24,000 nucleotides of DNA from an uncultured Planctomycetaceae bacterium. GTDB lineage: Bacteria; Planctomycetota; Planctomycetia; Planctomycetales; Planctomycetaceae. The stretch covers positions 58,584-82,583 of the forward strand of contig CAYSHJ010000129.1 in assembly GCA_964430385.1 (NCBI GenBank), read 5' to 3'. Under the pieces are notes generated by a model. It saw nothing but the letters and a program-made list of their open reading frames with translations, made no database searches and was not told the DNA's origin. Positions 2,128 to 18,446 of the stretch are shown in pieces. The translations under genes and the position numbers were made by a program. The first letter of the stretch is position 1. Each line of letters starts with the position of its first letter.

Positions 2128-3981
2128 ATGAAAAAACTCGCTCAGACACTTCTCGCATTGGCAGTCATTCAAAGCGGGCTGGCTACAGCTCAGCAAACAT
2201 CGTCGGACTCACCCGAGGCGGCGGCTCCCACCAAGCCGACTCGCGCGGAGTTGAAGGACAAGCAGCTTGATGTGTCGCTCGAAGCGCGGGACATCGAGCG
2301 GGTGTTGGGCAAGCTCAAGAAGGCGTCGGATCTCGCGAAGGAGCGGATTACCGAGGCGGCCAAGACGGCGGAGTCGGCATCGACGTCGCTGGAAAAGGGG
2401 GACTCGAAGGCCGCGCGGGCGGAGGCTCAACTGACGAACGAGAAGTTCAAAGAGATCGTTCAGCAACTGGAGGCGTTGCTGAAGGAAGAGACTCCGCAAC
2501 GGATCGCCGAGGCGCGGCAGTTGGCTCAGAAACTGGCGAAGGCCGAGCGGCAGTTCGCCGAGACGTTTCAGGGGATGCTGAACCCGGTCCAGGCGGGCGG
2601 GAAGGGAAAGGTCGATCCTCGTTCGCAGGTCAAGCCGATGCCCAACCCCGATATGAAGGGCAAGGGAGGTCAGAACGGCGGCGGCGGTGGTGGGAAGACG
2701 GGGGAGAAAAAAGAGGGAGAGCAGAACTCGGAGAAGAAGGACGCTGAAGGCAAGACCGGTGAGAAGAAAGAGCCGGGCGAAAAGGGTCCGAACGACAAGC
2801 CGATGACGAACGGCCAGGGAGGCAAGTCTGAGGAGAAGAACAAAGACGGAACCGGTGGTAAACCGGAAGGAGAGAAAGATGCCGGCAAGGATGCTGAGAA
2901 GAAAACGGGGGAGGGTGGCGGCAAGGATCCCCAAGGGAAGCCGACCGGTGCTGGCGCGGGCGAGAACAAAGACGAACCGAAACCCGGCGACGAACCGAAG
3001 TCTGAAGGGGGCGGCGCTGGCTCGAAGAACGAGAAAGACACGAAGCCCGGTGAAGAGGCTGACGGCACCGGCGGTGACAAACCGAACGACAAGAAACGGG
3101 ACGGTTCCGGAGGCGACTCGGACAAGGATCCGATGAACGACAAGGATCGCAACGGCGGAGGGGGCCTCGCGGGGATGACGGCCGAGCAGCGGCGCGAAAT
3201 GGTCGCGAATCGCGCGGAGCAGTTGGCCGAGTCGGGCAAGACGTTGCAGGATGTGCTCAACGAGATCGCGAAATCGACTGAACCGGGTGACAAAGAGGCG
3301 GTCGCCAAGATCCAGGAAATCCTCAAGGAAATCGACATCAACAAGATGGTCGCGGAGATGGGTCAGGTCGCCAACATGATCCGCTCCAACAAAGACGACG
3401 ACGCGAAGCTGTCGAGTATCGATTTCGCCGAGCGTTTGGAGATCATGGCTCAGCGATTGGACGGGGCGTATCGCACGATCGTCGCTCCGCAGGCGGAAGA
3501 GTTGCGGAAGGTCGAAGCAGCGCTGGCCGAGCTTCGCGATCAGCTTGAGAAACTCGAAACGCCTTCGCAAGTCGCTGCGTGGCATCGCGAAGTTCGCGAT
3601 CTGTTGGACAAGCTCGAAAAGCTCGGCGTCAGCCCGAAGGATCGCGAGTTCCTCGAAAAGGAAATGCAGAAGGCGGGCTTCGGACTGGATGTCGATCGGA
3701 CCAAACGGGGAGTGAATTGGAATCTGGTCGGCAGCTACTACGCCGCACCGCTGACGTACAACTCCGCCTTGCTGCACTTGCAGGAAGACATCCAAGAGCG
3801 CATCCAAACGCTGATCCTCGGCGATCTGGGGAATGCGTCGGATGAAGCGACACCGCCGAAGTATCAGGAGTTGGTCGACCGGTACTACGAGGTGTTGTCT
3901 CGCAGCGGGAAGCCCGGCCCGGCCGGGAAAGCGGCTCCGGCCGGAAAACCTGAGATGCGAAAGTCGAAAGCGAGCAAATGA
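2128..3981 (+). CDS. Secreted coiled-coil protein with a long Gly/Lys/Glu/Asp-rich disordered centre
   Basis: 617 aa. GGGAG lies upstream of the ATG. Signal-like N-terminus is MKKLAQTLLALAVIQSGLATAQQ. Both ends are heptad-like and Ala/Glu/Lys/Leu-rich. The stop overlaps the next start (ATGA at 3978-3981). Confidence 0.75.
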   Translation: MKKLAQTLLALAVIQSGLATAQQTSSDSPEAAAPTKPTRAELKDKQLDVSLEARDIERVLGKLKKASDLAKERITEAAKTAESASTSLEKGDSKAARAEAQLTNEKFKEIVQQLEALLKEETPQRIAEARQLAQKLAKAERQFAETFQGMLNPVQAGGKGKVDPRSQVKPMPNPDMKGKGGQNGGGGGGKTGEKKEGEQNSEKKDAEGKTGEKKEPGEKGPNDKPMTNGQGGKSEEKNKDGTGGKPEGEKDAGKDAEKKTGEGGGKDPQGKPTGAGAGENKDEPKPGDEPKSEGGGAGSKNEKDTKPGEEADGTGGDKPNDKKRDGSGGDSDKDPMNDKDRNGGGGLAGMTAEQRREMVANRAEQLAESGKTLQDVLNEIAKSTEPGDKEAVAKIQEILKEIDINKMVAEMGQVANMIRSNKDDDAKLSSIDFAERLEIMAQRLDGAYRTIVAPQAEELRKVEAALAELRDQLEKLETPSQVAAWHREVRDLLDKLEKLGVSPKDREFLEKEMQKAGFGLDVDRTKRGVNWNLVGSYYAAPLTYNSALLHLQEDIQERIQTLILGDLGNASDEATPPKYQELVDRYYEVLSRSGKPGPAGKAAPAGKPEMRKSKASK

Positions 3982-4814
3982 TCGAACGCTTCAAACGGTT
4001 CGGGATTCGGTTTGTGTTTGCCTGGCTGTGCTGCGGACTGTTGAGTCCGGTTGCATTTGCCGAGGACGAAGCCGAGGTATCGCGCGAGTTGGCTCAACTG
4101 CGCAAGCGGCTGGACGACGCGGTCCGCGAGTTTCAACTGACGGTCGAACGCGACCAGACGGTGACTGATCTGTCGCCGATCCCGGTACTCCGCTGGGACA
4201 GTAACCAGCGCGGCACGCTGGCAGGGGTGACGACGTTATTCATCGACGCGGGGCGGCCGGAGGCGGTCTGTTGCACCTACATCTTCGACAAAAAGCTGAC
4301 GCACGAGTTCACATCGTTGTCGCGAGGCAAGCTGCAAGCTCGGTTGGGCGACGCGGTCGTTTGGGAGCCGAACGAATCGGGTGTGAAGTTTCGGCCGATC
4401 CCGGCGGCCGATGCTCCTGCCGAGAATCCTGCCGGTCGCTTGCGACAGATGAAGGCGCTGTCCAATCGGTTTGAGTCGAAGCTGCTCGGCTGGGGCGCGG
4501 CGAATCCGATTCGCGAAGAGTTGCGGCTATTGCCTCGACCAATCTACCGCTACGAAAAGCTCCCCACCGGCGCGATCATTGATGGAGCCGTATTTGCCTT
4601 TGTCACCGGAGTCGATCCTGAAACGCTGCTGCTGATCGAAGCGGTCTCTGCGGATGGGAAGTCTCACTGGGAATACTCGTTCGCGCGACGCACATCGGGC
4701 GAGTTGGAAGGTCGGCTCGACAAGCAGCTCGTTTGGTCAGCTCCGCCGTTCCCCGTCATGACCGAACGAATCCGTCCTGATCGAATATTTAAGCAGGCTT
4801 TGAAATCGGACTGA
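3978..4814 (+). CDS. Array copy 1 of an unrecognised ~280-aa secreted two-repeat protein family
   Basis: 278 aa. Signal-like N-terminus ends ..PVAFA|EDE. Family motifs present: PVLRW, GRPEAV, RLRQMKALSNRF, ELRLLPRPIYRY, DGAVFAFVTGVDPETLLLIEA, WEYSFARR. Confidence 0.85.
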   Translation: MIERFKRFGIRFVFAWLCCGLLSPVAFAEDEAEVSRELAQLRKRLDDAVREFQLTVERDQTVTDLSPIPVLRWDSNQRGTLAGVTTLFIDAGRPEAVCCTYIFDKKLTHEFTSLSRGKLQARLGDAVVWEPNESGVKFRPIPAADAPAENPAGRLRQMKALSNRFESKLLGWGAANPIREELRLLPRPIYRYEKLPTGAIIDGAVFAFVTGVDPETLLLIEAVSADGKSHWEYSFARRTSGELEGRLDKQLVWSAPPFPVMTERIRPDRIFKQALKSD

Positions 4815-4824
4815 CAAGCCGACA

Positions 4825-4833
4825 CCCCCCCCC
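4825..4833. repeat. Poly-C(9) homopolymer in the intergenic region upstream of copy 2
   Basis: Nine consecutive C residues, counted directly. The tract starts 11 nt after the copy-1 stop and ends 64 nt before ATG 4897. Confidence 0.9.
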
Positions 4834-4896
4834 AACGCCGCGAGCATCTCCGACCACGTTCGAGTTGTCCGACAACAATTGACGCCTGGAAACACC

Positions 4897-5736
4897 ATGA
4901 CCCCCGTTTTGATCTTGTTGATCGCATCGCTCGGACAAGTTTCTGATCGGGTCAATCCGGATCAAGAGAACTCGTCCGATCGCGCGGAACGGCTGGTGTT
5001 TCTCACGGAGCGGGCGGAAGAGTATCAGCTCTTCGTACACGAGGACCGAGCAGTTCGCATGACGTCGCAGCCGGTGTTTCGCTGGAGTCATCCGGTGGCG
5101 AAGCTTGAAGACGCGGCCCTGTTTCTGTGGATGGATGAAGGCCGACCGGTCGCGCTCGGCACAACGATCCTGCACGCTGAGCTGGGGCTGTTCACCGAAC
5201 TGCAATCGGTGACTTCGCAAAGTCTGAGGGCCATCAAGAACAAGGAAACGGTTTGGGAACCTGTCGGCAAGGGGTGTCAGTTCTCTCCGGTCCCCAAGGG
5301 ACCGAAACCCGCCGAGACCGCGGCCGAGCGACTGACTCAGATGAAAGCGATCGCTCGCCGTTTCGAGGCACAGCTCACGAAGGCTCCGCCGTTTTATTCC
5401 GAAGGTTCGACGTGGCAGTTGCGGCTGCTGCCGAAACAACTGGCTCGCTACGGCAGCCCGAAGGAGCCTTCCTTTGATGGAGCGATCTTCGTGTTCTGTC
5501 ACGACACCGATCCGGAATTGATCCTGCTCTTGGAAGCCAGCGGCGAGGCGAATGAGGGCGCTTGGTTTTTTGCGTTCGCTCCGCTGACCGGTTGGGAAGC
5601 GAAAGTGAAATGCGATGAGAAAGTCGTCTGGTCGCAACCGCGTCTGCAATCCGTGAATGATCCCAAACTTCCCTACATCAAGTTCGGTCCGTACCCGGTC
5701 ACGACGAAGACGCGATCGCAGGAGGAATCGAAATGA
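4897..5736 (+). CDS. Array copy 2 of the family
   Basis: ATG 4897 is preferred over the TTG 4879 in the ORF track. Motifs: PVFRWSHP, GRPVAL, RLTQMKAIARRF, LRLLPKQLARY, DGAIFVFCHDTDPELILLLEA. The N-terminal signal (MTPVLILLIASLG) is weak. Confidence 0.8.
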   Translation: MTPVLILLIASLGQVSDRVNPDQENSSDRAERLVFLTERAEEYQLFVHEDRAVRMTSQPVFRWSHPVAKLEDAALFLWMDEGRPVALGTTILHAELGLFTELQSVTSQSLRAIKNKETVWEPVGKGCQFSPVPKGPKPAETAAERLTQMKAIARRFEAQLTKAPPFYSEGSTWQLRLLPKQLARYGSPKEPSFDGAIFVFCHDTDPELILLLEASGEANEGAWFFAFAPLTGWEAKVKCDEKVVWSQPRLQSVNDPKLPYIKFGPYPVTTKTRSQEESK

Positions 5737-6572
5737 AGAATCTGCTTCGCGGAGGAATCGGACTGATCTTGGCCGTAACGGTCGGTGTCGCTCTGAGCGA
5801 TGAGAAAGCCGACGAAGCCTATCGCGCCTCGCAGCTCCATCGCATGAAGAGCATCGCCGAGAAATTTGAAGTCGAGACCGCGTGGGAGTCGAAGCCGGTG
5901 GCGGCCAAGCTCAAGTCGAATCCGCTGTTGAAATACAACGATTCAACGCGGCGGAATCATGAATCGACGCTGTGGCTGTGGACCGAACGTGAGCTTCCCA
6001 GTGCGTTGATGGCGGTCGAGTTCTATCCGAACGACCCACGTGGTCCGCGCTGGCTGTTTGAGATTGTCTCGCTGTCGAACTCCAAAATCGGCGTAGCTCG
6101 CGGCGGAGATTGGAAGTGGCAGGCCAAACAACCGGGAGTGATCCGGAAACCTGTTCCCGGAGACTTGAAGCCGGCCGATAAGCCGGCGCTGCGGCTCTCG
6201 CAGGCTCGGCAGATTCGCCAGCGGTTCGCGGCTCACGAGAAAGAGGGCACCGTCGGTCGGATCGAATTGCGGCCGTTGTCCACTCCTCTGTATCGCTACG
6301 CCGACGAAGCCACCGGCGTGATCGACGGAGCGATCTTCGCCTTCGCAAACGGGACGAACCCGGAAGTGTTGTTGTTGCTGGAGGCTCAACGTGACGCCGC
6401 GACGAAGCAAGACATCTGGACTTACGGTTTCGCTCAGATGACCGGTGCCGAGGTCTATGCCAGCCTCGACGAGCGCGAAGTCTGGAGTCAAAAGGAGGCC
6501 GATCCTCCTGCGATTCGAGAGTCGTATGTGAATGGTTGGCTGAAGAACGAAGTGGCGGAGCCGCGAAAGTAG
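5733..6572 (+). CDS. Array copy 3 of the family
   Basis: 279 aa. The start overlaps the copy-2 stop (ATGA). Signal-like N-terminus is ..VGVALS|DEK. Motifs: PLLKY, RLSQARQIRQRF, ELRPLSTPLYRY, DGAIFAFANGTNPEVLLLLEA, WTYGFAQMT. Confidence 0.85.
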   Translation: MKNLLRGGIGLILAVTVGVALSDEKADEAYRASQLHRMKSIAEKFEVETAWESKPVAAKLKSNPLLKYNDSTRRNHESTLWLWTERELPSALMAVEFYPNDPRGPRWLFEIVSLSNSKIGVARGGDWKWQAKQPGVIRKPVPGDLKPADKPALRLSQARQIRQRFAAHEKEGTVGRIELRPLSTPLYRYADEATGVIDGAIFAFANGTNPEVLLLLEAQRDAATKQDIWTYGFAQMTGAEVYASLDEREVWSQKEADPPAIRESYVNGWLKNEVAEPRK

Positions 6573-6663
6573 GTTGGGACTCCGTCCCGACATTCGTTGA
6601 GGAAGGATCGCGGCGGGTTCTGAGCAAATGATGAGGAACGGTCGGGACGGAGTCCCAACCTAC
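6569..6663. repeat. Perfect 23-bp inverted repeat with 49-nt spacer (REPIN-like) between copy 3 and the vWA gene
   Basis: gtaggttgggactccgtcccgac (6569-6591) is the exact reverse complement of gtcgggacggagtcccaacctac (6641-6663). Each arm contains a gggac-tcc-gtccc mini-hairpin. CGAAAG occurs on both sides (6564-6569 and 6663-6668). Confidence 0.85.
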
Positions 6664-6668
6664 GAAAG

Positions 6669-9455
6669 ATGCACACCATGTTGGCCTCATTTCAATTTCT
6701 GACTCCGTTGACTGCTGCCATTGTCGGCTCGCTGGCGGCGGGCCTGTTGGTTGGGTTCGCCTTGCTGCGTTGGATCGGCGGACCTCCGGCGGCGATCGCT
6801 CGGCGGTGGGGGTTGATTGGGATTCGAGCGGCGGCGGTCTTCACGTTGCTGTTGATCCTGCTGAATCCATCGGACGTCTCGCAGACGCCGGGTCCGATTG
6901 ATCGGCCGGATATTTTCTATCTGCTCGATTCCTCGCAGAGCATGGCGGTCGGCGACAAGGAAACTCGGTTCGATCACGCCACGCGGTTGATGCGCGAAGC
7001 GGATCAGGCGACGCGCGATGAGGGTCATGCGCTGGTGAAGCTGTTCCGGTTCGGACATCGGCTGGCGGCGGTGGAGCAGGGAGCGGAGCAACAGAGGTCA
7101 GAAGTCAGAGCGTCAGAGGTCAGAGGTCAGAGCGGCAGCGAGCGAGGATCTGTGACTTTGACCTCTGCGGCCTTCGCTGCTGAGCCTCTGACCTCTGCGG
7201 CTCGGACTTCTTCCGCTCCGAAGGCCAAACAGAAACTGCTTGCGCCGACCGATTCCGACACACAGTTGCTGACGGCGTTGCGGCAGGTGCCGAGCCGATT
7301 CGGACGGCGGCCCCCGGCGGCGATCGTGCTGTTCTCGGATGGACGGGCGCGGGATGAATCGGGTGTGGAACAGCTCGCGGCGCAGTTCGCGAAGCTCAAC
7401 GTGCCGGTGCATGTGGTGCCGGTCGGCGACACGGCGAAGGGGGGCGATGTCGCGATCGTCGCGTGCGTCGTACCGCCTCGCGCGCGGCGGTTTGCTGAGG
7501 TCGAGGTACAAGTCTTCTTGAGAAGCTACGGCTACGACGGGCGTCGGTGTGAAGTGTCGCTCATCGCGCCGAGCAACGTGGAAGGTGAGGCCGACAAAAA
7601 CTTGGCTCCGCCGGTGCCGGTCACGTTGCATGATGGATTTCAATCGGTTGGCTTGTCGTTTCGGACGGACGCGAAGACTCGCAAGTTGCAGGTCAACGTG
7701 TCCGCGTTGCCGGATGAAGTCTCGACGGCGAACAACTCGTTCAAGGCCGAGGTGCAGATTGATCGCACGAAGATTCGCGTGCTGTATGTCGAAGGCAGCT
7801 CGCAGCCGTTGCAGCCGGTGCAGACCGGGAACCGCTACGAGGTGCGCGGGCCGTACTCCGACTTGCAGAAGGCGTTGACCGAGGATGAGGACATCGAGTG
7901 CGTCGTGTTGGCGGCTCCGTATGGCCGCGGTCGATTGCAGCGTGTCGCGGACGTCGGGGGTGCGGTGGTGGGTCGTGGGTTTCCGGAGACCGTGGCCGAG
8001 TTGTCCGCGTTCGATGCAATCATCCTCAGCGACGTCGCGGCGAACACGTTCACCGAGCAGCAATTGGAGTGGCTCGAAAAATGGATCGGTCAGCGCGGCG
8101 GTGGGCTGCTGATGGTCGGCGGTCAGCGCAGCTTCCGAGCGGGAGGCTGGGACGACACGCCGCTCGCCGCGATGCTGCCGATCGAGATGCGCGACGAAAA
8201 CGATTGGCTCCCCGGCACGCAGGTCAGCGTGCTGGCCGAACCGCAGGCGATGTCGCATCCGCTGTGGACGATCGTCACCGACGAGCGGCAGAACCGCGAC
8301 ATCATCGGCCAGTTTCCGTCGTTCTTCGGAGCCAACCGCTGGGCCGGTGTGAAGCCGAATCTGACGCGCGTGCTGGCGATGTCGAACCTCGCGGCGGCCG
8401 AAGCTCCCGCCGGGGCGGTGGCACCCGTGGCCCCGAAGCCCGTCAAGCCGCCGAGCTTCTTTGATTCATTGCAAAAGAATTTGATTGGAAATAAGCCGGC
8501 CGCCCGCAATCCAGCCGGTGAGCCGGAGGGCGCTAGCCCCCGGTTGAGCGACGAAGAAGAGAACCGGGGGCTAGTGCCCTCCGGCTCATCAAACACGAAG
8601 CTCGAAGCCACCGCCTCGAACCAGCCCGCGATCGTGGCCGGTCAATACGGTCGCGGCCGCACGCTGGCGATGGCCATGCCGATCACGCCACCGTGGGCCA
8701 ACGATCTGCTGACCAAGTGGGGCGGCGACACGAAGTACTACGGCAAGTTCTGGCGGAACGCGATCTATTGGCTGACCGAGAGTTCCTCAATCGGTCGCCG
8801 TCGGCTCGTCGTCACCGCCGACAAGAAGTTCTATCGACCCGGCGAAACGATCTCGCTGACCGCCGCCGCGTTCGATGAGGCCGCGAATCAAACCGGCTCG
8901 TACAAAATCACGTCGATGATCGAGCCGCAGACGTCGCTGAACGATCTCGAATCGAATTACTCGCCCGTCCGCTGGCCCGACGGCAAGCCGCGCGAGAGCG
9001 GCGAGACCGGCCCGTTCATCGCCTGGGGCGAGGAGTTTGATCTTCCTCGCACCGACGCCGTCGGCGGCAAGCCCGCGTTCGCGCTCGAGATGCCGATCGC
9101 CGACGCGCTGACCGTCGGCTCGGCCAGCCAGTCGCTGCGTGTCGAACTGACGGCGATGGAAGAGTTCACTCAGGTCGACAGCACGTCGCTCGACATCCAA
9201 ATCCTGCACGACCCGTTCGAGCAACAGAATCCGTTCCCGAACCACGACCTGCTGGTGTCGATCGCGAAGCACTCCGGCGGCAAAGTCATCAACGACGCGA
9301 CTCAACTCGCCGAAGTCCTCCGCGATGTCCCGATGAAAGTCGGCTCGCCCATCGTCAAGAAGACGCCGCTGTGGAGTACCTGGTGGCTGTGGACCTGGCT
9401 GCTGGGCTTGCTCAGCGTCGAATGGATTTGGCGAAGAGTCGTGGGATTGGCGTGA
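6669..9455 (+). CDS. BatA-N/vWA/GATase1-like membrane protein
   Basis: 928 aa. The N-terminus is a double-TM segment (FQFLTPLTAAIVGSLAAGLLVGFALLRW..; IGIRAAAVFTLLLILL). It has a MIDAS-like DSSQSM motif and the vWA signature AIVLFSDGRA. The central part is class-I-amidotransferase-like (RVLYVEGSS...FDAIILSDV...GGGLLMVGG). There is a C-terminal TM segment (WWLWTWLLGLLSVEWIW). Confidence 0.7.
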   Translation: MHTMLASFQFLTPLTAAIVGSLAAGLLVGFALLRWIGGPPAAIARRWGLIGIRAAAVFTLLLILLNPSDVSQTPGPIDRPDIFYLLDSSQSMAVGDKETRFDHATRLMREADQATRDEGHALVKLFRFGHRLAAVEQGAEQQRSEVRASEVRGQSGSERGSVTLTSAAFAAEPLTSAARTSSAPKAKQKLLAPTDSDTQLLTALRQVPSRFGRRPPAAIVLFSDGRARDESGVEQLAAQFAKLNVPVHVVPVGDTAKGGDVAIVACVVPPRARRFAEVEVQVFLRSYGYDGRRCEVSLIAPSNVEGEADKNLAPPVPVTLHDGFQSVGLSFRTDAKTRKLQVNVSALPDEVSTANNSFKAEVQIDRTKIRVLYVEGSSQPLQPVQTGNRYEVRGPYSDLQKALTEDEDIECVVLAAPYGRGRLQRVADVGGAVVGRGFPETVAELSAFDAIILSDVAANTFTEQQLEWLEKWIGQRGGGLLMVGGQRSFRAGGWDDTPLAAMLPIEMRDENDWLPGTQVSVLAEPQAMSHPLWTIVTDERQNRDIIGQFPSFFGANRWAGVKPNLTRVLAMSNLAAAEAPAGAVAPVAPKPVKPPSFFDSLQKNLIGNKPAARNPAGEPEGASPRLSDEEENRGLVPSGSSNTKLEATASNQPAIVAGQYGRGRTLAMAMPITPPWANDLLTKWGGDTKYYGKFWRNAIYWLTESSSIGRRRLVVTADKKFYRPGETISLTAAAFDEAANQTGSYKITSMIEPQTSLNDLESNYSPVRWPDGKPRESGETGPFIAWGEEFDLPRTDAVGGKPAFALEMPIADALTVGSASQSLRVELTAMEEFTQVDSTSLDIQILHDPFEQQNPFPNHDLLVSIAKHSGGKVINDATQLAEVLRDVPMKVGSPIVKKTPLWSTWWLWTWLLGLLSVEWIWRRVVGLA
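7092..7200. repeat. GGTCAGA-type heptamer run with an inverted partner, in frame inside the vWA CDS
   Basis: Left part runs aggtcag/aagtcag/agcgtcag/aggtcag/aggtcag (7095-7130). Right part cctctgacctctg (7185-7197) is the exact reverse complement of cagaggtcagagg (7113-7125). gacctctgcgg occurs twice (7160-7170 and 7190-7200). The region encodes QRSEVRASEVRGQS...TLTSAA...PLTSAA. Confidence 0.7.
8519..8588. repeat. 27-nt inverted-repeat doublet in frame inside the vWA CDS
   Basis: tgagccggagggcgctagcccccggtt (8519-8545) matches the reverse complement of 8562-8588 (tgagccggagggcactagcccccggtt) at 26/27 positions. The loop is 16 nt. The region encodes GEPEGASPRLSDEEENRGLVPSGS. Confidence 0.8.
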
Positions 9456-10419: not shown

Positions 10420-11292
10420 ATGCGTCGTGTGTCTTCAATTTGGTGGCCGGTCTGTTTATCCCTGTCGTGCCTCGCGGCATTGGCCTCGCTCGCACCGGCC
10501 GATGATCCGCCGAAAGTTGACGGCAAGGAGGCTCAGCCGGACGACGCTCCGCTGCGGAAGGCTCGCGTGCAGTTTTTGGCCGACGCGGTCAAACATTTTG
10601 AAATCCACGTCGGAGAGGACGAGGTGGAGTCGAAGCGGATTCCGGAGCCGGTGTTGGCCTACAACAATCCGGTCAGCGGGACGAAGATCGGCATCCTCGC
10701 ACTGTTCACCCGCAATGGCCGCCCCGATGTGATGGCTCAGTTTTCCTTCTCCGCACCTCAGGCCGTCTACAACGAGTTCCACAATCTTTGCGGCGACAAA
10801 ATCGTCATGAAACGCGGTGAGCAAACCGTGTGGACGCCGCCGGAAACTTCGACCAAATGGCAGCCCCTCGAAACGTCCGAGAAGCCGGCGGCAACGCCTC
10901 AACTGCGGCTCGTGCAAATGCGGCGGCTGGCCGAGAAGTTCAACGTCGAAGACAACTTTGGCTGGGACAAAAAGGAACTCAATCAACTCCGGTTGCTGAC
11001 GACCCCCGTCCATCGTTACGGCAACGCCGACGAGGAAGTGATCGACGGTGCCGTCTTCATCTACGCCCTTGGAACCGACCCCGAAGCCCTGTTGATGCTG
11101 GAATGTGCGAAGGGTGAGACCGGGTTGCACTGGCGTTACGGCTTCGGGCCGATGTCAATCTACGCACTGAAGGCCAAGCTCGGTGATACCGTCGTGTGGG
11201 AGATTTCCGAACGAAAGGTCTTCGGACACCCCAAGTCCGTCCAATTTGTCTCGCCGTACCAACTCGCGCCTGGCGAGAAATTTCCGGAATGA
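10420..11292 (+). CDS. Array copy 5 of the family (subtype B)
   Basis: 290 aa. AAGGAG lies 7 nt upstream. Signal-like N-terminus is ..ASLAPA|DDPP. Motifs: PVLAYNNPVSG, NGRPDVM, LRLVQMRRLAEKF, LRLLTTPVHRY, DGAVFIYALGTDPEALLMLEC. By eye it is roughly four-fifths identical to copy 10. Confidence 0.9.
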   Translation: MRRVSSIWWPVCLSLSCLAALASLAPADDPPKVDGKEAQPDDAPLRKARVQFLADAVKHFEIHVGEDEVESKRIPEPVLAYNNPVSGTKIGILALFTRNGRPDVMAQFSFSAPQAVYNEFHNLCGDKIVMKRGEQTVWTPPETSTKWQPLETSEKPAATPQLRLVQMRRLAEKFNVEDNFGWDKKELNQLRLLTTPVHRYGNADEEVIDGAVFIYALGTDPEALLMLECAKGETGLHWRYGFGPMSIYALKAKLGDTVVWEISERKVFGHPKSVQFVSPYQLAPGEKFPE

Positions 11293-11353
11293 TGTTCCCA
11301 CCGACGCGAGGGCGAGCGATTCACAAGTGGTCAAACATCATCATTCGGAACGT

Positions 11354-11377
11354 CCGCCCTCGCTGACGGTTCGGCTT
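11354..11377. repeat. Conserved intergenic tail motif ccgccctcgctgacggttcggctt (upstream of copy 6)
   Basis: Homologous to 10374-10397. cgccctcgc (11355-11363) pairs with gcgagggcg (11306-11314) as a 9-bp stem. Confidence 0.5.
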
Positions 11378-11399
11378 ACTTTTCGTCAAGGAGTTTGCG

Positions 11400-12239
11400 A
11401 TGCGTCGAGTTGTTCCAATGGTGTGGCATCTGACTCTGTGCTTGCTGTGCCTCGTGGCATCGGCATCGGCCGAGGACGAGAAGAAGTCGGAGTCAAATGA
11501 CGGCTTGAATGAGGAGACTCGCAAAGTGGTCGTGGCCAAGATGAAAGAAATCTTGGATCAGACCAAAGTGGTTCGACTGCGGCCGACTTCTGTCACCGTC
11601 GAGTTGGTTCCCGAACCGATTCTCAATTGGGACGACGTTCCACGTGGGCATCACTACGGGACGTTGTGGGTTTGGGGAACCACAGGTCGGCCCGCCGCGA
11701 TTGTCGAGACGTACACGATCGACTTCGCCAAGAACATCGGAAGTTGGCCGGGAAACGTCGTGCATTCGTTGGCTCCGGAACCGCTTCAGGCCGAGGGAAC
11801 CTTTGGATGGAAATGGGCACCGACCGAACCGGGCTTCACGCCGAAGCGGCTGGCCGATGCACCGCGTCCGGCTGACACAAAGACTCTGCGGCGTTTGCAA
11901 ATGCGAGCGTTGGCCAAGCGGTTCACCGCCAACCAGACGTGGATGGGGGACCGCTCCGAATTGCGACTGCTGCCGACCTCGATCCGTTTGTACGAATCGG
12001 CTGACGACGGAGTGCTCGACGGCGGTCTCTTCGCATTCGTGCATGGCGGCACGAACCCCGAAGTCATTCTGGTTCTGGAAGCGATGCACGGTGCCAAGGA
12101 GGACTATTGGCAGTACGGATGCGTCCGGCTCGGCCACGCCCGGATGCAGGCGAAGTTCGATGGCCGCGAAGCGTGGTCTGTCGAAACCTATGACGGTGTC
12201 AGTCCGAATGCCCCGTACTACTGGCTCATCAGCCGCTGA
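11400..12239 (+). CDS. Array copy 6 of the family (subtype C)
   Basis: 279 aa. AAGGAG lies upstream. Signal-like N-terminus is ..VASASA|EDEKK. Motifs: PILNW, HHYGTLWVWGTTGRPAAI, LRRLQMRALAKRF, ELRLLPTSIRLY, DGGLFAFVHGGTNPEVILVLEA. Confidence 0.85.
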   Translation: MRRVVPMVWHLTLCLLCLVASASAEDEKKSESNDGLNEETRKVVVAKMKEILDQTKVVRLRPTSVTVELVPEPILNWDDVPRGHHYGTLWVWGTTGRPAAIVETYTIDFAKNIGSWPGNVVHSLAPEPLQAEGTFGWKWAPTEPGFTPKRLADAPRPADTKTLRRLQMRALAKRFTANQTWMGDRSELRLLPTSIRLYESADDGVLDGGLFAFVHGGTNPEVILVLEAMHGAKEDYWQYGCVRLGHARMQAKFDGREAWSVETYDGVSPNAPYYWLISR

Positions 12240-12275
12240 GATTTCCGAGCAAACAACGACACTGAGTCGGTTCGT

Positions 12276-13206
12276 GTGGATTGCGTTCAGGCCGCCACGA
12301 GTGGCCAAACAGAAAGATTGATCGTGCTGACTGACACCTTGAATCACATCACGTTGTTCCGTCGGAAGGCGTTGTTTCTTGTCTGTGCGTTCGCGCTGTT
12401 GCTGTCCTCGGCACGCGCGGACGAGCCGTCGAAAGCGGGCGCTCCGGAGGTCAAGCAGGAAGACGCTGAGGCCATTCCAAAATTTGATTTTGCCGCCGCT
12501 GCCGCGGGGTACGAAATCTCGATTGGTAAAGACCGCTTGATTTGCGAACCGTCTCAGATCGAACTGCTGAAGTGGTCGAACCCCGTGCGCGGGTCGCCGG
12601 CCGGAACGGTTTTTCTGTGGCACCACAAGGGTGCGCCACAAGCGGCTTGCTGTATGTTCGCCTACAGAAATCCCGAGGTGAAAGGGGACTTCCTGGTCAA
12701 TCACGAGTTTGTTTCGCTGTCCACGGATTTGATCGAGAGCAAATCGAACGATGGCCTGGTCTGGAAAACAACCATGCCGGGCATCGCGTGGCAGGAGATT
12801 CCGGAGAGCCCACCGATCGCCAAGACGCGCCCCGCGCGGCTGGCTCAGATGCGCGATCTCGCCAGCAAGTTCACCGGACAGATCGGTAAGGCGAACAATG
12901 TCCGGGAGGAATTGCGTCTGCTCCGCCAACCCATTTATCGCTACCCGGAAGCGAGCGACCGTGACGGCGCAATTTTCGTTTTTTGCTCAAACCACTGATC
13001 CGGAAATCCTGCTGCTGTTGCAAACCGATCCGCTGGCGACGGGCTCCCAGTGGAGCTGCGCCTTCGCACGAATGACCATGTTCCCTTGCTGGCTCAGCCA
13101 CCGTGAGAAGGAAGTCTGGTCCGTCCCCTCGCTCAACCCGAAAGTCGATTCGGACACGTATCGAACTTTTCGCCGCGTTCCTTGGAAAGCTGTCGAGGAG
13201 AAATGA
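12276..13206 (+). pseudogene. Array copy 7 (subtype A'), reading frame broken by one extra T in a T-run
   Basis: Frame 1 (12276-12998) ends ..DRDGAIFVFCSNH*. The frame starting at 12985 continues AQTTDPEILLLLQT...RVPWKAVEEK* and is colinear with copy 4. The break lies in TTTTTT at 12979-12984. Removing one T restores F-V-F-A-Q-T-T-D-P. The likely true start is TTG 12339 (MNH.., as in copy 4) or GTG 12324, rather than GTG 12276. Confidence 0.8.
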
Positions 13207-13293
13207 GTTCCGTGCTGCCAATTCGGCTTCGCCTGTGTTTGGTCCTACGGTGCCAGGGCCTCCAATTCACTACACGCATTTCGGAGTTTCCGC

Positions 13294-14154
13294 ATGACCG
13301 ACCTTCGAATCACGTTTCTGCGAATATTTCTCTCACTATTAGTCGTCATGGCGTTGATGACTTCGGGCGTCAGTGCTGCCGACCCACCGGCCAAACAGGG
13401 AGGGGAGTCCGACGATCTTGTGCGAACGGAATCGAAGGCGGCCACGGAACGCGCTGTTGAGGAGATCGGGAAATGGAAGTTCGATTTTGAAGATGAGAAA
13501 CTCGGAACCATTGTCGCGGAGAAAGACTCGGCGTTGCGGTGGGCGTGGACGGACAACGGTCGGGCGTATGGCAATCTGTTTGTGCTCTCCGCTCAGGACC
13601 GACCGGTGGCCATCGTGGAGTTCTTCACATGGTACTCGCCCATCCAAGGTGCGTACTTTCAATGCACATCGCTGACCAATTTTCCGATGAACGCCAAGCG
13701 ATCCGGGCAGGATATTTGGCGACCGACGAAGAGCAACGTCGTCATGCAAAATGTCCCCGACGCTCCGACTCCGGCGAAAACGGCGTCGCAGAGACTCGTG
13801 CAAATGAAACGGCTGGCAGAAGCGTTTCAGGTCGAGGTTGATGACAAACGAGCCACGGAAATCACCGTCCGGCAGCTTCGCCTGATGCCGAGACCGCTGC
13901 ATCGATACGGCAAATCCGATAGCCCGATTCTGGACGGAGCGTTGTTTTCCTACGCGGTCAGCAGCGATCCCGGAGCGATCTTGGTTCTGGAGGTCGTCTC
14001 CTCTGGTGACGGTCCACGCTGGCAGTACGGCTTTGCCCGTGTGTGGTCCTACGGAGCCAGAGCCACTTATTCCGGGAAGCGTGTTTGGGATATCGAAGAG
14101 GTCAACCCGCGCGCCGACATGAAGGCGAACTTCTACTTGAACGCACTTCCGTAA
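13294..14154 (+). CDS. Array copy 8 of the family (subtype D)
   Basis: 286 aa. Signal-like N-terminus is ..TSGVSA|ADPP. Motifs: ALRWAW, DRPVAIVEFF, RLVQMKRLAEAF, LRLMPRPLHRY, DGALFSYAVSSDPGAILVLEV, WQYGFARV. Confidence 0.85.
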   Translation: MTDLRITFLRIFLSLLVVMALMTSGVSAADPPAKQGGESDDLVRTESKAATERAVEEIGKWKFDFEDEKLGTIVAEKDSALRWAWTDNGRAYGNLFVLSAQDRPVAIVEFFTWYSPIQGAYFQCTSLTNFPMNAKRSGQDIWRPTKSNVVMQNVPDAPTPAKTASQRLVQMKRLAEAFQVEVDDKRATEITVRQLRLMPRPLHRYGKSDSPILDGALFSYAVSSDPGAILVLEVVSSGDGPRWQYGFARVWSYGARATYSGKRVWDIEEVNPRADMKANFYLNALP

Positions 14155-14242
14155 TTTTCCGGCCAATGTCCGTGACAAGCGAGGACGTCTCGGAAAACCA
14201 TTCAGACGAGATCCTGTGCGACAGAAGAATGTGAGTCAGATT

Positions 14243-15070
14243 ATGCGACAGCAACGATTGAGTATTGTGTCACTCGTTCTCATCACCCTGTGCGTTTCAT
14301 TGAGCGCGATTGGGGCAGATGACGACGCGGCGAAAAAGGAAGTGGCGGCACAGCGGTTGGTGGTGATGAAAAAGACGGTCGGCGGAGTGGACGTGACGAT
14401 CGGCAAGGGGGGATCAGAGAAGCTGACGCGGGTCGATGAGCCGATTCAGCGTTGGAGCAATCCGATCGTTCGAATCGAGGATGCAACGGTATTTCTGTGG
14501 ACGCTCGATGGTCGTCCGGCCGTTGTGTCTCAGGTCGCCGATGTGACCGACGAAGGTGTGTGGCAAGAGTTCCAATCGCTGACCGCCCAGCCGCTGCTGG
14601 CCACACGCGATGGGCAAAGTTATTGGGCTCCCACGGCGGCCGGGATCAAATGGCAGCGTGCTCCAACAACTGAGTCTCCCGCGTCGACGCCCGAATTGCG
14701 GCGCATCCAAATGAGAAAGATCGCTGAGAAGTTTCGGGTCGCGGATCTCTTCGAGTTCAAGGAGCCGAACCAACTGCGACTGCTGGCGACGCCGCTCTAT
14801 CGGTACTCCGCGCCGAAAGTGGGAGTGCGGGATGGAGCCTTGTTTTCGTACGCACTCGGCACCGATCCGGAAGTCCTGTTGCTCATCGAAGCCCAACAGG
14901 AGGGTGACGCCGAGACCTGGAAGGTGGCGTTCGCTCGGCTGACGGGTTTCGCTTGCCGCGCGACTTTGGACGACAAGGAAGTCTGGTCGTGCAAGGTCAT
15001 GCCGTTTCCGTACCCGCCCGATTCCACGTTTTTTTCAATTCAAGTCACGTCGTCCAATCGCAGCAAATAA
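14243..15070 (+). CDS. Array copy 9 of the family (subtype E)
   Basis: ATG 14243 is preferred over GTG 14216. Signal-like N-terminus is ..LSAIGA|DDD. Motifs: PIQRWSNP, ATVFLWTLDGRPAVV, LRRIQMRKIAEKF, LRLLATPLYRY, DGALFSYALGTDPEVLLLIEA, WKVAFARLT. Confidence 0.85.
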   Translation: MRQQRLSIVSLVLITLCVSLSAIGADDDAAKKEVAAQRLVVMKKTVGGVDVTIGKGGSEKLTRVDEPIQRWSNPIVRIEDATVFLWTLDGRPAVVSQVADVTDEGVWQEFQSLTAQPLLATRDGQSYWAPTAAGIKWQRAPTTESPASTPELRRIQMRKIAEKFRVADLFEFKEPNQLRLLATPLYRYSAPKVGVRDGALFSYALGTDPEVLLLIEAQQEGDAETWKVAFARLTGFACRATLDDKEVWSCKVMPFPYPPDSTFFSIQVTSSNRSK

Positions 15071-15085
15071 TTCATGACCGGGAAT

Positions 15086-15142
15086 GCGAGTCGCGGGAGC
15101 GACTCGCCTACGTAGCTTCCGCCGCGGCGGACTCCCGCGACT
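15086..15142. repeat. GC-rich hairpin cluster (REP-like) between copy 9 and the methyltransferase
   Basis: gcgagtcgc-ggga-gcgactcgc forms a 9-bp stem at 15086-15107. It is followed by ctacgtagc and then the 12-nt palindrome ccgccgcggcgg (15119-15130). agtcgcgggag (15089-15099) is also complementary to ctcccgcgact (15132-15142). No U-tract follows. Confidence 0.6.
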
Positions 15143-15203
15143 GAGATTTCATGCTCCGATGAGATACCGCGAAACCGCTTCTGAAAACAAGGAAACGCAT
15201 TTC

Positions 15204-15863
15204 ATGTCGTCGTCGCTTGAGTCCGTCCGAACCGCATACGACCTCGCTTGCGAGCCGTATGCGCGGAAGTTCGTCAACGAACTTGATCACAAACCGCTCG
15301 ATCGCGTGTTGCTCAAGCGGTTCGCCGACAGCGTCGGTGCGGAGCGGCTGATTCTCGACATTGGCTGTGGTCCGGGACACACGACGGCGCATCTGACTTC
15401 GTTGGGGTTGATGGCGACTGGGGTCGATCTTTCGCCAATGATGATCGAGGTCGCCTCGCGGACGTTTCCGCATTCGCGATTCGAGGTCGGTGACTTCTTC
15501 GCGCTGCGCCATGAATCCTCGTCGATCGCGGGCATCCTTGCTTTTTATTGTATCGTGCATTTGACGACCGAGCAGCTCGTGTTGGTGTTCGAGGAAATGT
15601 ATCGAGTGCTCTGTGACGGCGGTGTTCTGTTGCTGTCCTTCCATGTCGGGTCCGAAGTGATCCGCGCCGAGAATTTCCTCGACACGAGCGCGGTCTTGGA
15701 ATTCACGTTCTTTGAAACTCGGCAAGTCGAAGCGGCTCTGATGACCGCGGGATTTGCCCCGATCGATCTCCGCGTCCGAGCACCCTACGACACCGAACAT
15801 CCCAGCCGACGCTGTTACGTTTTCGCTCACAAGCCGCCAAGTCTGGCCTCACCGAAAGAATGA
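15204..15863 (+). CDS. Class I SAM-dependent methyltransferase
   Basis: Motif I is ILDIGCGPGHTT, followed by GVDLSPMMIEVA. The post-I and later motifs FEVGDFF, ILAFYCIVHL and LCDGGVLLLSFH are present. There is no signal peptide. ATG 15204 (preceded by aaggaaac) is preferred over ATG 15084, whose extension only translates the hairpin cluster. Confidence 0.8.
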   Translation: MSSSLESVRTAYDLACEPYARKFVNELDHKPLDRVLLKRFADSVGAERLILDIGCGPGHTTAHLTSLGLMATGVDLSPMMIEVASRTFPHSRFEVGDFFALRHESSSIAGILAFYCIVHLTTEQLVLVFEEMYRVLCDGGVLLLSFHVGSEVIRAENFLDTSAVLEFTFFETRQVEAALMTAGFAPIDLRVRAPYDTEHPSRRCYVFAHKPPSLASPKE

Positions 15864-16753
15864 GCATGTTGTCTCCCGATTTGAATCAACTCGTTCGTCG
15901 CGTCCGGAATCATTGGGCTGTCGCCTGCGCACTCGCGCTGTTGATGCCTCCCGTGTTTGCCGAGGATCCGCCGAAAGCGGACGGCAAAGAAGCAAAGCCG
16001 GAGGACGCTCTGCTGCGGAAAGCTCGCGTGCAGTTTCTGACCGATGCGGTCAAGCATTTTGAAGTGCTGGTCGGCGAGGAGGCGGTGGAATCGAAGCTGC
16101 GTCCAGAGCCGGTGCTCGTTTGGGACAACCCCGTCAGCGGAACCAAGATCGGAATCCTGGCGGTGTTCACTCGCAATGGCCGTCCGGATGTGATGGGCCA
16201 GTTTTCTTTCACGTCGCCGCAGAACGCCGTCAACGAATTTCATAATCTCTGCGGTGACAAAGTGGTCATGAAGCGCGGAACGAACACGATCTGGTCGCCG
16301 GCGGAGACCTCGACCAAGTGGCAGAAGCTCGACACCTCTGAGAAGCCGGCGGCAACGCCTCAACTGCGGCTCGTGCAAATGCGGCGGCTGGCCGAGAAGT
16401 TCACCGTCGAAGACGACTTCGGCTGGGACAAGAAAGAACTCAATCAACTGCGACTGCTGACGACTCCCGTCCATCGCTACGGCAAGCCGGACGAAGAAGT
16501 GGTCGACGGCGCGGTCTTTGTTTATGCGCTGGCGACGGACCCCGAAGCGGTGTTGATGCTGGAATGCGTTCGCAGTGAATCAGGTTTGTCTTGGCGATAC
16601 GGATTCGGTCCGATGTCGATCTACGCGCTGAAGGCCAAGCTCGGCAACGCCGTCGTGTGGGAGATCCCCGAACGAAAACAATTCGGACAACCCAAGTCCG
16701 TTCAATACGTCTTCCCGTATCAACTCGGCCCCGGCGAGAAGTTTCCGGAATGA
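15860..16753 (+). CDS. Array copy 10 of the family (subtype B')
   Basis: 297 aa. The start overlaps the methyltransferase stop (ATGA at 15860-15863). Signal-like N-terminus is ..MPPVFA|EDPP. It is colinear with copy 5 throughout and shares a 64-nt identical run with it. Confidence 0.9.
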   Translation: MSMLSPDLNQLVRRVRNHWAVACALALLMPPVFAEDPPKADGKEAKPEDALLRKARVQFLTDAVKHFEVLVGEEAVESKLRPEPVLVWDNPVSGTKIGILAVFTRNGRPDVMGQFSFTSPQNAVNEFHNLCGDKVVMKRGTNTIWSPAETSTKWQKLDTSEKPAATPQLRLVQMRRLAEKFTVEDDFGWDKKELNQLRLLTTPVHRYGKPDEEVVDGAVFVYALATDPEAVLMLECVRSESGLSWRYGFGPMSIYALKAKLGNAVVWEIPERKQFGQPKSVQYVFPYQLGPGEKFPE

Positions 16754-16762
16754 GGTCGGAGC

Positions 16763-17185
16763 ATGGTCATGAAACAGCTCGAAGTGGCGAACGTGAAGCA
16801 CTGGCTGTCGCGGCATTTCACACGACGACACGTCGTGATCTTGGCCGTCATCTGGCTCGTCTTCACGACTTGGACATTTCTCATCGTGAGTAGCGGACTC
16901 GACCACTCCCGCGAGCAGCCTTGGACCGTTGTCACTGTCACCGTCGCGAGTGTGCTGGGGCCGATGACCGGAGCCATCTCTCGAGGATTCCAAAGCTGTT
17001 GTCTGCAAGCGTCATTGTCGCTGCTCCCGTATTGTTTTGCTGGCTTGGCGGTCGGCACGTTGACACAAGTCGCTTGGCATCCACAGGCCATGTGGCTGCG
17101 TGTGGTTCGGCTCGTGATCTGGGCGTCTGGAATTTTCGTCTGGTTTGCTGGCGGGATTCTCTCGTTTTTCCACGCACTTTCCTGA
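16763..17185 (+). CDS. Small hypothetical 4-TM membrane protein
   Basis: 140 aa, starting 9 nt after the copy-10 stop. Four hydrophobic segments: VVILAVIWLVFTTWTFLIV, WTVVTVTVASVLGPMTGAI, LSLLPYCFAGLAVGTL, VVRLVIWASGIFVWFAGGILSFF. No family recognised. Confidence 0.6.
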   Translation: MVMKQLEVANVKHWLSRHFTRRHVVILAVIWLVFTTWTFLIVSSGLDHSREQPWTVVTVTVASVLGPMTGAISRGFQSCCLQASLSLLPYCFAGLAVGTLTQVAWHPQAMWLRVVRLVIWASGIFVWFAGGILSFFHALS

Positions 17186-17220
17186 CGCCTTAGAAATCAG
17201 CTCATCAAGGAACCGACGAA

Positions 17221-18126
17221 ATGAGTCCTCAAGAACATGGTGGCGACGGGCCGTATGGCGTGATGCTGTGTTTGACCGCTGCCATCGGCACGATATTGGT
17301 GAGCGGACTGTCGTTGCTCGCAGAAGACAAACCGGTGGCTCCGGCGACTGAGTCCGAAGAGGCGAAACGTTCGCGCGAGGAGTTGCAGGTTTCGCTGGAG
17401 CAAGTCGCGCCGATGCGGATGCAGCACGCGACGACCGGTGCCGTGATCGAACGAGTGACGCATCCGGTGTTGCGGTATGCGGCTCCGCTGTGGGGCGGGC
17501 ATCATGGAACGCTGTGGGTTTGGGGGAAGCGCGGGCGGCCGTTGGCGGTGTTGGAAATGTCCTTGATGGGGAAAGAGGGACTCTGGTACCGGTCCTTTCA
17601 CGCCACGACGGATGCTCCCATCAAATTAGATCTGGCCAATGGGAGGTCATGGACGCCGAAGTCGAGCAACGTGAAATTCCAACCGTTGCCCAACGCCCCT
17701 CTGCCTGCGGAGACGCCGGCTGGTCGAATGCGACAAATGAAAGCATTCCTCCAAAAAATGTCGGCGCATCAGCTTTGGACATGGCGGGAGGGTGACGGCT
17801 CGCGGCATGAACTGCGGCTGCTGACCACGCCCGTGCATCGCTACAAAGACCGCGAGCAGCAACTCATCGACGGTGCGCTCTTCATCATTGCCCAAGGGAC
17901 AAACCCGGAAGCGACTCTATTTCTGGAAGCGGTCAACCCGGTCGGTGCCGCCCAGCCGTTCTGGCAATTCGGCATCGGCCGGACATCCTTCGCGGAACAG
18001 TTCGTCCACTACGAGGACCAGGAGGTCTATCATGATCCGCCGGTGAAGCACGATGAGATCTTCAACAGCACGAATTCCTATTGGCGGACGACGTCGAAGC
18101 TTGACGAACAGAAAGACAAGCCATGA
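17221..18126 (+). CDS. Array copy 11 of the family (subtype C')
   Basis: 301 aa. It has an N-terminal hydrophobic segment (..ILVSGLSLLA|EDKP). Motifs: PVLRYAAP, HHGTLWVWGKRGRPLAV, RMRQMKAFLQKM, ELRLLTTPVHRY, DGALFIIAQGTNPEATLFLEA, WQFGIGRTS. Confidence 0.85.
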   Translation: MSPQEHGGDGPYGVMLCLTAAIGTILVSGLSLLAEDKPVAPATESEEAKRSREELQVSLEQVAPMRMQHATTGAVIERVTHPVLRYAAPLWGGHHGTLWVWGKRGRPLAVLEMSLMGKEGLWYRSFHATTDAPIKLDLANGRSWTPKSSNVKFQPLPNAPLPAETPAGRMRQMKAFLQKMSAHQLWTWREGDGSRHELRLLTTPVHRYKDREQQLIDGALFIIAQGTNPEATLFLEAVNPVGAAQPFWQFGIGRTSFAEQFVHYEDQEVYHDPPVKHDEIFNSTNSYWRTTSKLDEQKDKP

Positions 18127-18446
18127 AGGTCAACTGCTGTTTCGTCGGTTTGATGATGCTCGGCCTGTCCGCCGTGGCTCAAGAGTCGTCCACGACGGAC
18201 TCGGCCACCGAAGCCGCGGAGCAAATGAAGATCGCTCGCGCGAACGTGACGCTCTTCCGAATTCAGGACGCCGAGACCGGCGCGGACATCGAGCGGATGG
18301 AGAATCCCGCCTTGCGATACACGGAACCGGTTCGGGGGCCGACTCACGGAATGGTGTGGCTGTGGGGTCGCAAAGGGCGGCCGGCTGCGGTGCTGGAAAT
18401 GATTCGCGAGGCGGATCGTTTCTGCTCATCCAAAAACGAAACATGA
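18123..18446 (+). CDS. Array copy 12: truncated paralog (signal peptide plus first half-repeat only), probable gene remnant
   Basis: 107 aa. The start overlaps the copy-11 stop (ATGA). Signal-like N-terminus is ..LSAVA|QES. It carries PALRYTEP and HGMVWLWGRKGRPAAVLEM, then diverges (IREADRFCSSKNET*) and stops. No downstream frame continues the family. Confidence 0.6.
   Translation: MKVNCCFVGLMMLGLSAVAQESSTTDSATEAAEQMKIARANVTLFRIQDAETGADIERMENPALRYTEPVRGPTHGMVWLWGRKGRPAAVLEMIREADRFCSSKNET

Follow-up and report, generated by a model that had tools for sequence, protein, structure and literature searches.

The stretch of DNA described here, 24,000 nucleotides of contig CAYSHJ010000129.1 (positions 58,584 to 82,583, forward strand) from an uncultured Planctomycetaceae bacterium and referred to below as the window, carries an array of twelve co-directional genes (c1 to c12, Table 1) for exported proteins of about 280 amino acids. 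In related genomes the genes of this family are linked to a regulatory switch of the BlaI/BlaR1 type, and in the lineage of the window they are associated with an operon of the Bat (Bacteroides aerotolerance) type. The proteins are tentatively regarded as inducible, non-catalytic binding or accessory proteins of the periplasm under such a switch, a reading to which a probability of about 0.4 is given. The regulatory link is seen at the level of the family and in the relatives only; actual repression by BlaI, also of this array, is presumed.

The family is large and confined to one phylum as far as it was traced. A profile search of 1.84 billion representative proteins yielded 3,423 clusters at 50% identity (E<=1e-3) and 1,469 at E<=1e-30, and the source names, where given, read 'hypothetical protein' of Planctomycetaceae or Pirellulales. 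When one genome per species was scanned, 73 loci were recovered, all of them in Planctomycetota (among them Planctomycetaceae, Schlesneria, Pirellulaceae, Isosphaeraceae, Stieleria, Novipirellula and Rhodopirellula), in a sample which was built with a c1-type alignment and leans towards the c1 subfamily. The original prediction, made from the sequence of the window, could not place the proteins in any named family, and the searches agree with it. Pfam gave no match for the five copies submitted and none that was consistent among 108 members at E<=5; NCBIfam, PADLOC and a profile search of PDB sequences gave no match for the family. Foldseek returned only noise for the full model against PDB and BFVD and for a single module against PDB, the top matches being non-significant MR1/CD1 chains (E>=0.013, template modelling (TM) score about 0.1). 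Searches of the literature returned no account of the family, of BlaR1 in planctomycetes or of their Bat operons.

A signal-like N-terminus had been predicted for each copy, and a hydrophobic core followed by a small-x-small site was indeed found in 12 of 12 copies and in 104 of 108 members by a heuristic test of these two features, used in place of SignalP and negative for five cytoplasmic control proteins. The leader of c2 is without a basic n-region, and the mature N-termini are acidic. The leader sequences, together with the topology of two fusion proteins described below, suggest that the proteins are Sec-exported and located in the periplasm. The AlphaFold2 (AF2) model of c9 is a confident one (predicted local distance difference test, pLDDT, 92.7; predicted TM score, pTM, 0.87; pLDDT of the C-module alone 91.8). 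In this model the leader is followed by a helix with about seven strands, a Pro-rich linker and a second helix with about nine strands. The arrangement reflects a tandem duplication within the protein: a module of about 115 amino acids, made of a helix and a β-sheet, occurs twice. In each module one helix is packed on a long antiparallel sheet, and the N-terminal and C-terminal halves are matched by hhalign over 103 columns with a probability of 97.2% and E 4e-11. The C-module is the more conserved (column entropy 1.38 vs 1.88 in the N-module). Most variation falls in the N-module, loops and tails, and insertions cluster at three places, behind the leader, behind residue 169 and at the C-terminal end. 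A metagenomic protein of 545 amino acids (P0122) consists of two complete family units head to tail, that is four modules.

In 33 of the 73 loci the family genes adjoin the gene of a BlaR1-type M56 metalloprotease, their commonest neighbour. This protein ends in a WD40 propeller and carries the motif HELAHxxRGDHW, and a Penicillinase_R (BlaI) repressor gene stands before blaR1. The cassette in these genomes is ordered as BlaI, BlaR1 (M56 plus WD40), family copies and a C13-like secreted protein. A reciprocal test was started from the BlaR1 protein in 80 metagenome loci, of which only those with enough downstream sequence were counted. Family genes lie directly downstream of 16 of 29 WD40-type BlaR1 genes as against 0 of 24 M56-only paralogs (Fisher P=7e-6), and for the gene of the last cassette member, a protein of 361 amino acids, the figures are 19 of 29 and 0 of 24 (Fisher P=2e-7). 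This secreted protein of about 361 amino acids follows the last family gene of the cassette in 32-34 loci (for example L013:6969-8051). Its similarity to clan CD is weak (Peptidase_C13 in 6 of 22 members, best E 1.8e-5; metacaspase-4, E 0.09). It keeps the GH motif, shows a Pro apparently at the Cys position (FFITTPTSG) and contains dockerin/EF-hand-like DxDxDG motifs; it is possibly a pseudo-protease. A seeming neighbour family of 180 amino acids was rejected as an artefact of antisense open reading frames (ORFs) over blaI.

A conserved promoter and operator, CTTGaat..AGACAnnnTGTCTgTAtctT, also given as CTTGaatTncAGACAtnnTGTCTgTAtctTG, precedes blaI in 28 non-redundant loci, and its palindrome sits between the -35 and -10 elements. 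When 1.17 Mb were scanned with a position weight matrix (PWM), 31 matches reached at least 14 bits as compared with 0-1 in shuffled sequence. Four of them were outside the training set: three lie 5' of single-copy family genes (L056, L065, L072) and one lies 5' of BatA in locus L004. The latter promoter (TTGAAT, AGACGTAATGTCT, TATTCT) is placed about 90 nt before the ATG of BatA, the gene which heads an operon syntenic with the window. Among 20 exact AGAC-N5-GTCT palindromes away from blaI, 7 are found within 250 nt 5' of family genes, a territory of 4.4% of the sequence (binomial P=1.6e-5); these seven belong to Novipirellula, Rubripirellula, Pirellula, Stieleria tagensis and three metagenome-assembled genomes (MAGs). 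In general, the BlaI paralogs of planctomycetes appear to use AGAC-N5-GTCT as operator. In loci L104-L154, which hold BlaR1 paralogs from metagenomes, the palindrome is often doubled at a distance of about 26 nt, as at 7537 and 7560 of L131. Locus L045 contains four tandem 89-bp repeats (6517-6784), each with AGACAAACGGTCT. The classical cop/bla box TACAnnTGTA was considered and rejected, being absent from the window and from the 5' regions of 29 blaI genes.

The second association is with genes of the Bat/MoxR-VWA kind. The window supplies two of them, the DUF4175 gene cut by its start and the membrane VWA/GATase1-like gene o6669, which splits the array after c3; MoxR, DUF58 and BatA are supplied by relatives. 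Orthologs of the DUF4175 gene in L003-L005 are located 3' of BatA, and in L003 and L004 a BatA_N-VWA gene stands at the head of the same row of co-directional genes. The protein of o2128, the gene directly before c1, is extremely rich in Lys, Gly, Glu and Asp, and its L032 homolog forms a fusion with the DUF4175 protein. The Pirellulaceae loci L042 and L043 contain a family gene beside MoxR AAA+, DUF58, BatA_N-VWA, DUF4175 and VWA/GATase1-like genes, which stand in this order. Of the 73 loci, 17 have a homolog of o6669 next to family genes and 14 a homolog of o17/o2128, and these loci belong to two orders. The copies themselves showed no BatA, VWA, tetratricopeptide repeat (TPR) or DUF4175 match in Pfam that would make them homologs of BatA-E.

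Two proteins carry the family domain as a fusion. P0194 comprises an extracytoplasmic function (ECF) sigma factor, a transmembrane segment and then the family domain; in P0272 a zf-HC2 anti-sigma motif is followed by a Ser/Thr kinase, a transmembrane segment and the domain. Both fusions are predicted to put the domain outside the membrane, at the position of an extracytoplasmic sensor. Further sigma proteins of about 500 amino acids were rejected as fusions, as they match in the sigma half only; P0194 and P0272 alone carry the domain. A binding or accessory role is suggested by these fusions with the domain at a sensor position, by the duplicated modules, by the way in which the paralogs vary and by the lack of similarity to enzymes. 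In the mechanism proposed, an M56 metalloprotease in the membrane, its WD40 beta-propeller lying in the periplasm, would sense an envelope signal and inactivate a BlaI-type repressor on the AGAC-N5-GTCT operator, and the family genes would then be transcribed. They would be transcribed directly, as the last genes of a blaI-blaR1 operon, or, in the case of the window, within a long BatA/DUF4175/VWA-GATase1-like operon. The exported, diverged paralogs would act in the periplasm as non-catalytic binding or accessory modules. The function shared by all would reside in the conserved C-module, and the specificity of the individual paralog in the variable N-module, loops and tails. A bolder version, considered doubtful, would have the family as a new fold and as the dedicated periplasmic output, possibly also co-sensor, of a new BlaR1-type class with a beta-propeller sensor, each paralog recognising a different envelope or environmental ligand and being coupled to the Bat/MoxR-VWA machinery. 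If this is true, the BlaR1 expansion of planctomycetes and the Bat operon would for the first time have a function that can be tested.

Several observations weigh against the proposal of inducible, non-catalytic proteins under BlaI control. The 24-kb window contains neither blaI nor blaR1 nor the operator: the best PWM score is -1.2 bits in a scan which leaves aside the operon's own head, located 5' outside the window, and palindromes with one mismatch occur at chance level. The syntenic relatives L003 and L005 are without the operator in the stretch covered, and a scan at relaxed threshold gave none in the window, L001-L003, L005, L032, L042, L043 and L046. BlaI control of this array is therefore argued for by one site, that of L004. 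The operator is moreover generic to planctomycete BlaI paralogs (27 of 33 M56-only loci), and its presence implies control by a repressor of the BlaI type, which need not belong to the WD40-type pair. Each of the two fusions is a single cluster, both come from the same subclade, and a published analysis argues that C-terminal extensions of planctomycete sigma factors often arise from the chance insertion of duplicated sigma genes (PMC7671368). These fusions speak for topology and only weakly for function. Finally, the conserved Asp, Glu, Arg, Tyr and Trp residues of the C-module could just as well belong to a catalytic site.

The layout of the array bears out the original prediction, with minor corrections. 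Listing and translation of ORFs recovered all twelve copies where they had been placed, ten of them intact, c7 frameshifted and c12 truncated. The ten full copies align colinearly, and the motif blocks which had been listed correspond to conserved or invariant columns (invariant in c1 numbering: P94, W129, R154, Q157, L182, R183, Y192, D202, G203, F206, P214, L218, E221, W231). Identity between c5 and c10, estimated at about four-fifths, was measured as 79%; c4 and c7 share 59%, c11 and c12 36% and the remaining pairs 17-34%. A profile hidden Markov model (HMM) of 108 family members matches the intact copies at 226-335 bits; it gives 159 and 50 bits for the pieces into which c7 is split and, at positions 12-103 of the model, 55 bits for c12. 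ATGA start/stop overlaps were verified at 3978 (o2128/c1), 5733 (c2/c3), 15860 (methyltransferase/c10) and 18123 (c11/c12). The operonic character suggested by these overlaps is plausible: between 2128 and 18446 every gene points the same way, neighbours overlap by 4 nt or stand 9-107 nt apart, and sites resembling terminators are about as frequent as chance would have it (24 found, 19.5 expected). A search of the window for sigma-70-like promoters gave a single match, on the minus strand, and motifs resembling Shine-Dalgarno (SD) sequences are found 7-12 nt 5' of several starts. Co-transcription across the window is presumed. Three unrelated genes interrupt the array, namely those of the VWA/GATase1-like protein, a methyltransferase and a small protein with about four transmembrane (TM) segments.

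The two damaged copies differ in kind. The disruption of c7 is a single extra T in the T-run 12978-12983, and its removal restores ...DGAIFVFAQTTDPEILLLL...; this copy probably starts at TTG 12339 or 12354 rather than at GTG 12276. Because the remainder of c7 is under purifying selection, the altered run could be an error of sequencing or assembly instead of the mark of a real pseudogene. The truncation of c12 is real: nucleotide homology of 92% to L002 (blastn), where the ortholog has full length, ends at 18419. Synteny is broken here by a deletion, by a rearrangement or by the joining of sequences in assembly. The array goes on in L002 and L003, where a blaI-blaR1 cassette follows about 7 kb further on the same contig. 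In the window, the sequence 3' of the 18419-18675 breakpoint holds genes of housekeeping kind, namely recO, a BamD/YfiO-like TPR lipoprotein gene, lptE, a Zn-ribbon protein gene and parA (minus strand).

An old expansion that has been retained had been predicted as well, and comparison with other genomes speaks in its favour. The ratio of nonsynonymous to synonymous substitution (dN/dS, ω) lies at 0.11-0.31 for every copy with an ortholog in the related loci L002-L005, both halves of c7 included; for the VWA gene o6669 it is 0.11-0.14. Apart from the pairs c4/c7 and c5/c10, each copy has relatives outside its own genome that are much closer to it than any paralog of the array (c6 and c11, for example, are 64% and 87% identical to copies of a Schlesneria MAG). 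From the closer cross-genome relatives and the low ω it follows that the expansion is old and retained, most paralog lineages being, by these comparisons, evidently older than the genomes compared. Decay of most copies had been named as an outcome contrary to the prediction; at the level of sequence the ω values contradict it. Membership of the array differs among close relatives. For one pair of genomes, synonymous divergence (dS) runs from 0.1 to 0.8 between neighbouring genes along the locus, and c11 is 87% identical to its Schlesneria counterpart where other copies reach 63-67%. Such a mosaic suggests turnover, recombination or transfer within the array. Short fragmentary matches to the family in several frames at L073:10579-13725, in an uncultured Planctomycetia MAG, resemble a pseudogenised array.

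Four other explanations were weighed. The copies may be accessory or structural subunits of a Bat/MoxR-VWA envelope complex, as periplasmic partners or ligands of the VWA proteins and their metal ion-dependent adhesion sites (MIDAS), the BlaI link being secondary. Their position between o2128 and the VWA/GATase1-like gene and beyond, with translational overlaps in the window and in relatives, agrees with this, as does the same neighbourhood beside MoxR, DUF58, BatA and DUF4175 in Pirellulaceae. MIDAS sites bind acidic residues, and the mature N-termini are acidic. Nevertheless, Bat genes are found within 10 kb in only 14-17 of the 73 loci compared with 33 with BlaR1, single-copy genomes (Stieleria, Novipirellula, Isosphaeraceae) have no Bat neighbours, and sequence similarity to BatA-E is absent. 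This explanation is held to be unlikely. Rather less credit is given to the view that the proteins are periplasmic enzymes, for instance hydrolases acting on an envelope or exogenous polymer, with paralogs that differ in substrate. The invariant or nearly invariant C-module residues R179, R187, Y188, D197, D208, E216, W226 and R232 (c9 numbering) would fit an active site, BlaI/BlaR1 systems classically induce an exported enzyme, BlaZ, and the cassette includes a clan-CD peptidase-like protein. However, neither sequence comparison nor Foldseek revealed similarity to an enzyme family, and the domain occupies a sensor position in two fusions. Moreover, the modules are homologous with conserved residues partly mirrored between them, and conservation for structural reasons fits as well as catalysis.

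Improbable, too, is a repertoire of periplasmic proteins that inhibit foreign toxins or proteases or give immunity to them, in the manner of orphan immunity-gene arrays. Tandem arrays of diverged exported paralogs, a membership that varies between close relatives and a pseudo-protease-like partner in the cassette are all compatible with such a role; the heterogeneous dS and the copy unusually close to that of Schlesneria suggest exchange between genomes. On the other hand, an operon of housekeeping type has kept its synteny in two orders, the ω values do not indicate diversifying selection, and toxin, effector or secretion-system genes are not among the recurrent neighbours of the 73 loci, which are BlaI, BlaR1, the C13-like protein, Bat genes and planctomycete DUFs. 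There is also no PADLOC match, the models of PADLOC covering anti-phage systems only. That the copies are mostly non-functional, decaying duplicates is hardly credible. The frameshift of c7, the truncation of c12 and the many fragments in L073 could be quoted for it, but 10 of the 12 are intact, purifying selection acts on all copies that have an ortholog (and on both halves of c7), paralog lineages have been kept across genera and SD-like motifs precede several starts. The fusions, the BlaI/BlaR1 link and the pattern of variation are compatible with the 'specificity-diversified binding, recognition or protection system' of the original prediction, which is a possible reading.

Table 1. Array copies and other genes along the window (positions counted from its first nucleotide).
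Feature	Position	Strand	Remarks
DUF4175 gene (Bat-operon type)	17..1348	+	3' part, cut by window start; Pfam DUF4175 E 2.5e-7
IS200/IS605-type Y1 transposase	1505..1987	+	unrelated to the family; Pfam Y1_Tnp E 8e-18
o2128	2128..3981	+	617 aa; signal peptide and coiled coil; conserved operon member directly 5' of c1; stop overlaps c1 start
c1	3978..4814	+	278 aa; HMM 335 bits; most widespread subfamily; orthologs 76-80% identical, ω 0.20-0.26
c2	4897..5736	+	279 aa; HMM 265 bits; ω 0.20-0.28; alternative start TTG 4879
c3	5733..6572	+	279 aa; HMM 230 bits; ω 0.16-0.17; ATGA overlap with c2
o6669	6669..9455	+	928 aa; membrane VWA and GATase1-like (and MG2-like); conserved in Bat operons; Pfam GATase1_like 9.6e-19, VWA_2 2.1e-5
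c4	9496..10335	+	279 aa; HMM 238 bits; 59% identical to c7
c5	10420..11292	+	290 aa; HMM 265 bits; 79% identical to c10
c6	11400..12239	+	279 aa; HMM 226 bits; closest relative 64% identical (Schlesneria locus L017)
c7	12276..13206	+	+1 frameshift copy; L004 ortholog intact, 95-97% identical, ω 0.11-0.21
c8	13294..14154	+	286 aa; HMM 296 bits; ω 0.19
c9	14243..15070	+	275 aa; HMM 261 bits; copy used for AF2; possible start GTG 14216
S-adenosylmethionine-dependent methyltransferase	15084..15863	+	Pfam Methyltransf_25 E 3e-18; ATGA overlap with c10; ortholog in L003
c10	15860..16753	+	297 aa; HMM 264 bits; ω 0.15
Small hydrophobic protein, about 4 TM	16763..17185	+	no Pfam match; L002 ortholog 93% identical, ω 0.19
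c11	17221..18126	+	301 aa; HMM 246 bits; ω 0.24-0.31
c12	18123..18446	+	107 aa; leader and most of first module; HMM 55 bits

Among the remaining features, the transposase is inserted between the DUF4175 gene and o2128, where the guanine-plus-cytosine content dips locally to 0.52 and a hairpin lies at 2001-2018; L005 carries a homologous transposase ORF at the same position. Scans of the window with Rfam and for tRNA genes gave no match.

Genomes of Planctomycetota are rich in large unexplained paralogous families, and they contain many BlaI/BlaR1-like pairs and Bat/MoxR-VWA operons without known signals or outputs. The results join three elements, an exported family of about 3,400 clusters, a BlaR1 subtype with a WD40 sensor and the AGAC-N5-GTCT operator, and an array of 'hypothetical proteins' becomes a testable regulon. 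The chief surprise is this concrete and testable link among three poorly understood elements of the planctomycete envelope, more than the finding of another dark family in these bacteria. The internal duplication, the Bat-type operon and the BlaI/BlaR1 link are points which the original account did not contain. A confident two-module model without a neighbour in PDB is also a good target for structure determination.

In relation to known systems, the closest parallel is BlaI/BlaR1 (MecI/MecR1). As in that system, the relatives have a Penicillinase_R-type repressor gene adjoining the gene of an M56 zinc-metalloprotease membrane transducer and a palindromic operator between -35 and -10 of an autoregulated promoter, and the same operator stands 5' of genes for exported proteins, the known outputs being BlaZ and PBP2a. 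In contrast to it, the sensor is a WD40 beta-propeller and not a penicillin-binding (transpeptidase-like) domain, the operator reads AGAC-N5-GTCT and not TACA/TGTA, the family is without similarity to beta-lactamases or penicillin-binding proteins (PBPs), and the window itself has neither regulator nor operator. The array also resembles Bat and MoxR-DUF58-VWA operons, since it stands among DUF4175 and VWA/GATase1-like genes, with MoxR, DUF58 and BatA_N-VWA on the 5' side in relatives. Unlike the components of these operons, the family is not homologous to BatA-E and is not a recognised member, and outside Planctomycetaceae and Pirellulaceae it occurs without Bat genes.

A further comparison can be made with DUF1559, DUF1501, PSCyt/PSD and DUF1581/1583, which are likewise lineage-restricted, exported, present in many copies per genome and without assigned function, and some of which adjoin family genes in the loci examined. 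Those families have Pfam models and the present one has none, whereas tight co-directional arrays and a specific regulatory partner are peculiar to the latter. In architecture, two homologous helix-plus-antiparallel-sheet modules in tandem presumably recall proteins of the BLIP type or of the major histocompatibility complex (MHC) platform type; in the present family, unlike in these, the helix comes first within the module, and no significant structural or sequence match to them was obtained. It can be said that the protein family itself is without known relatives and that its regulatory logic and its host operon are of known kinds.

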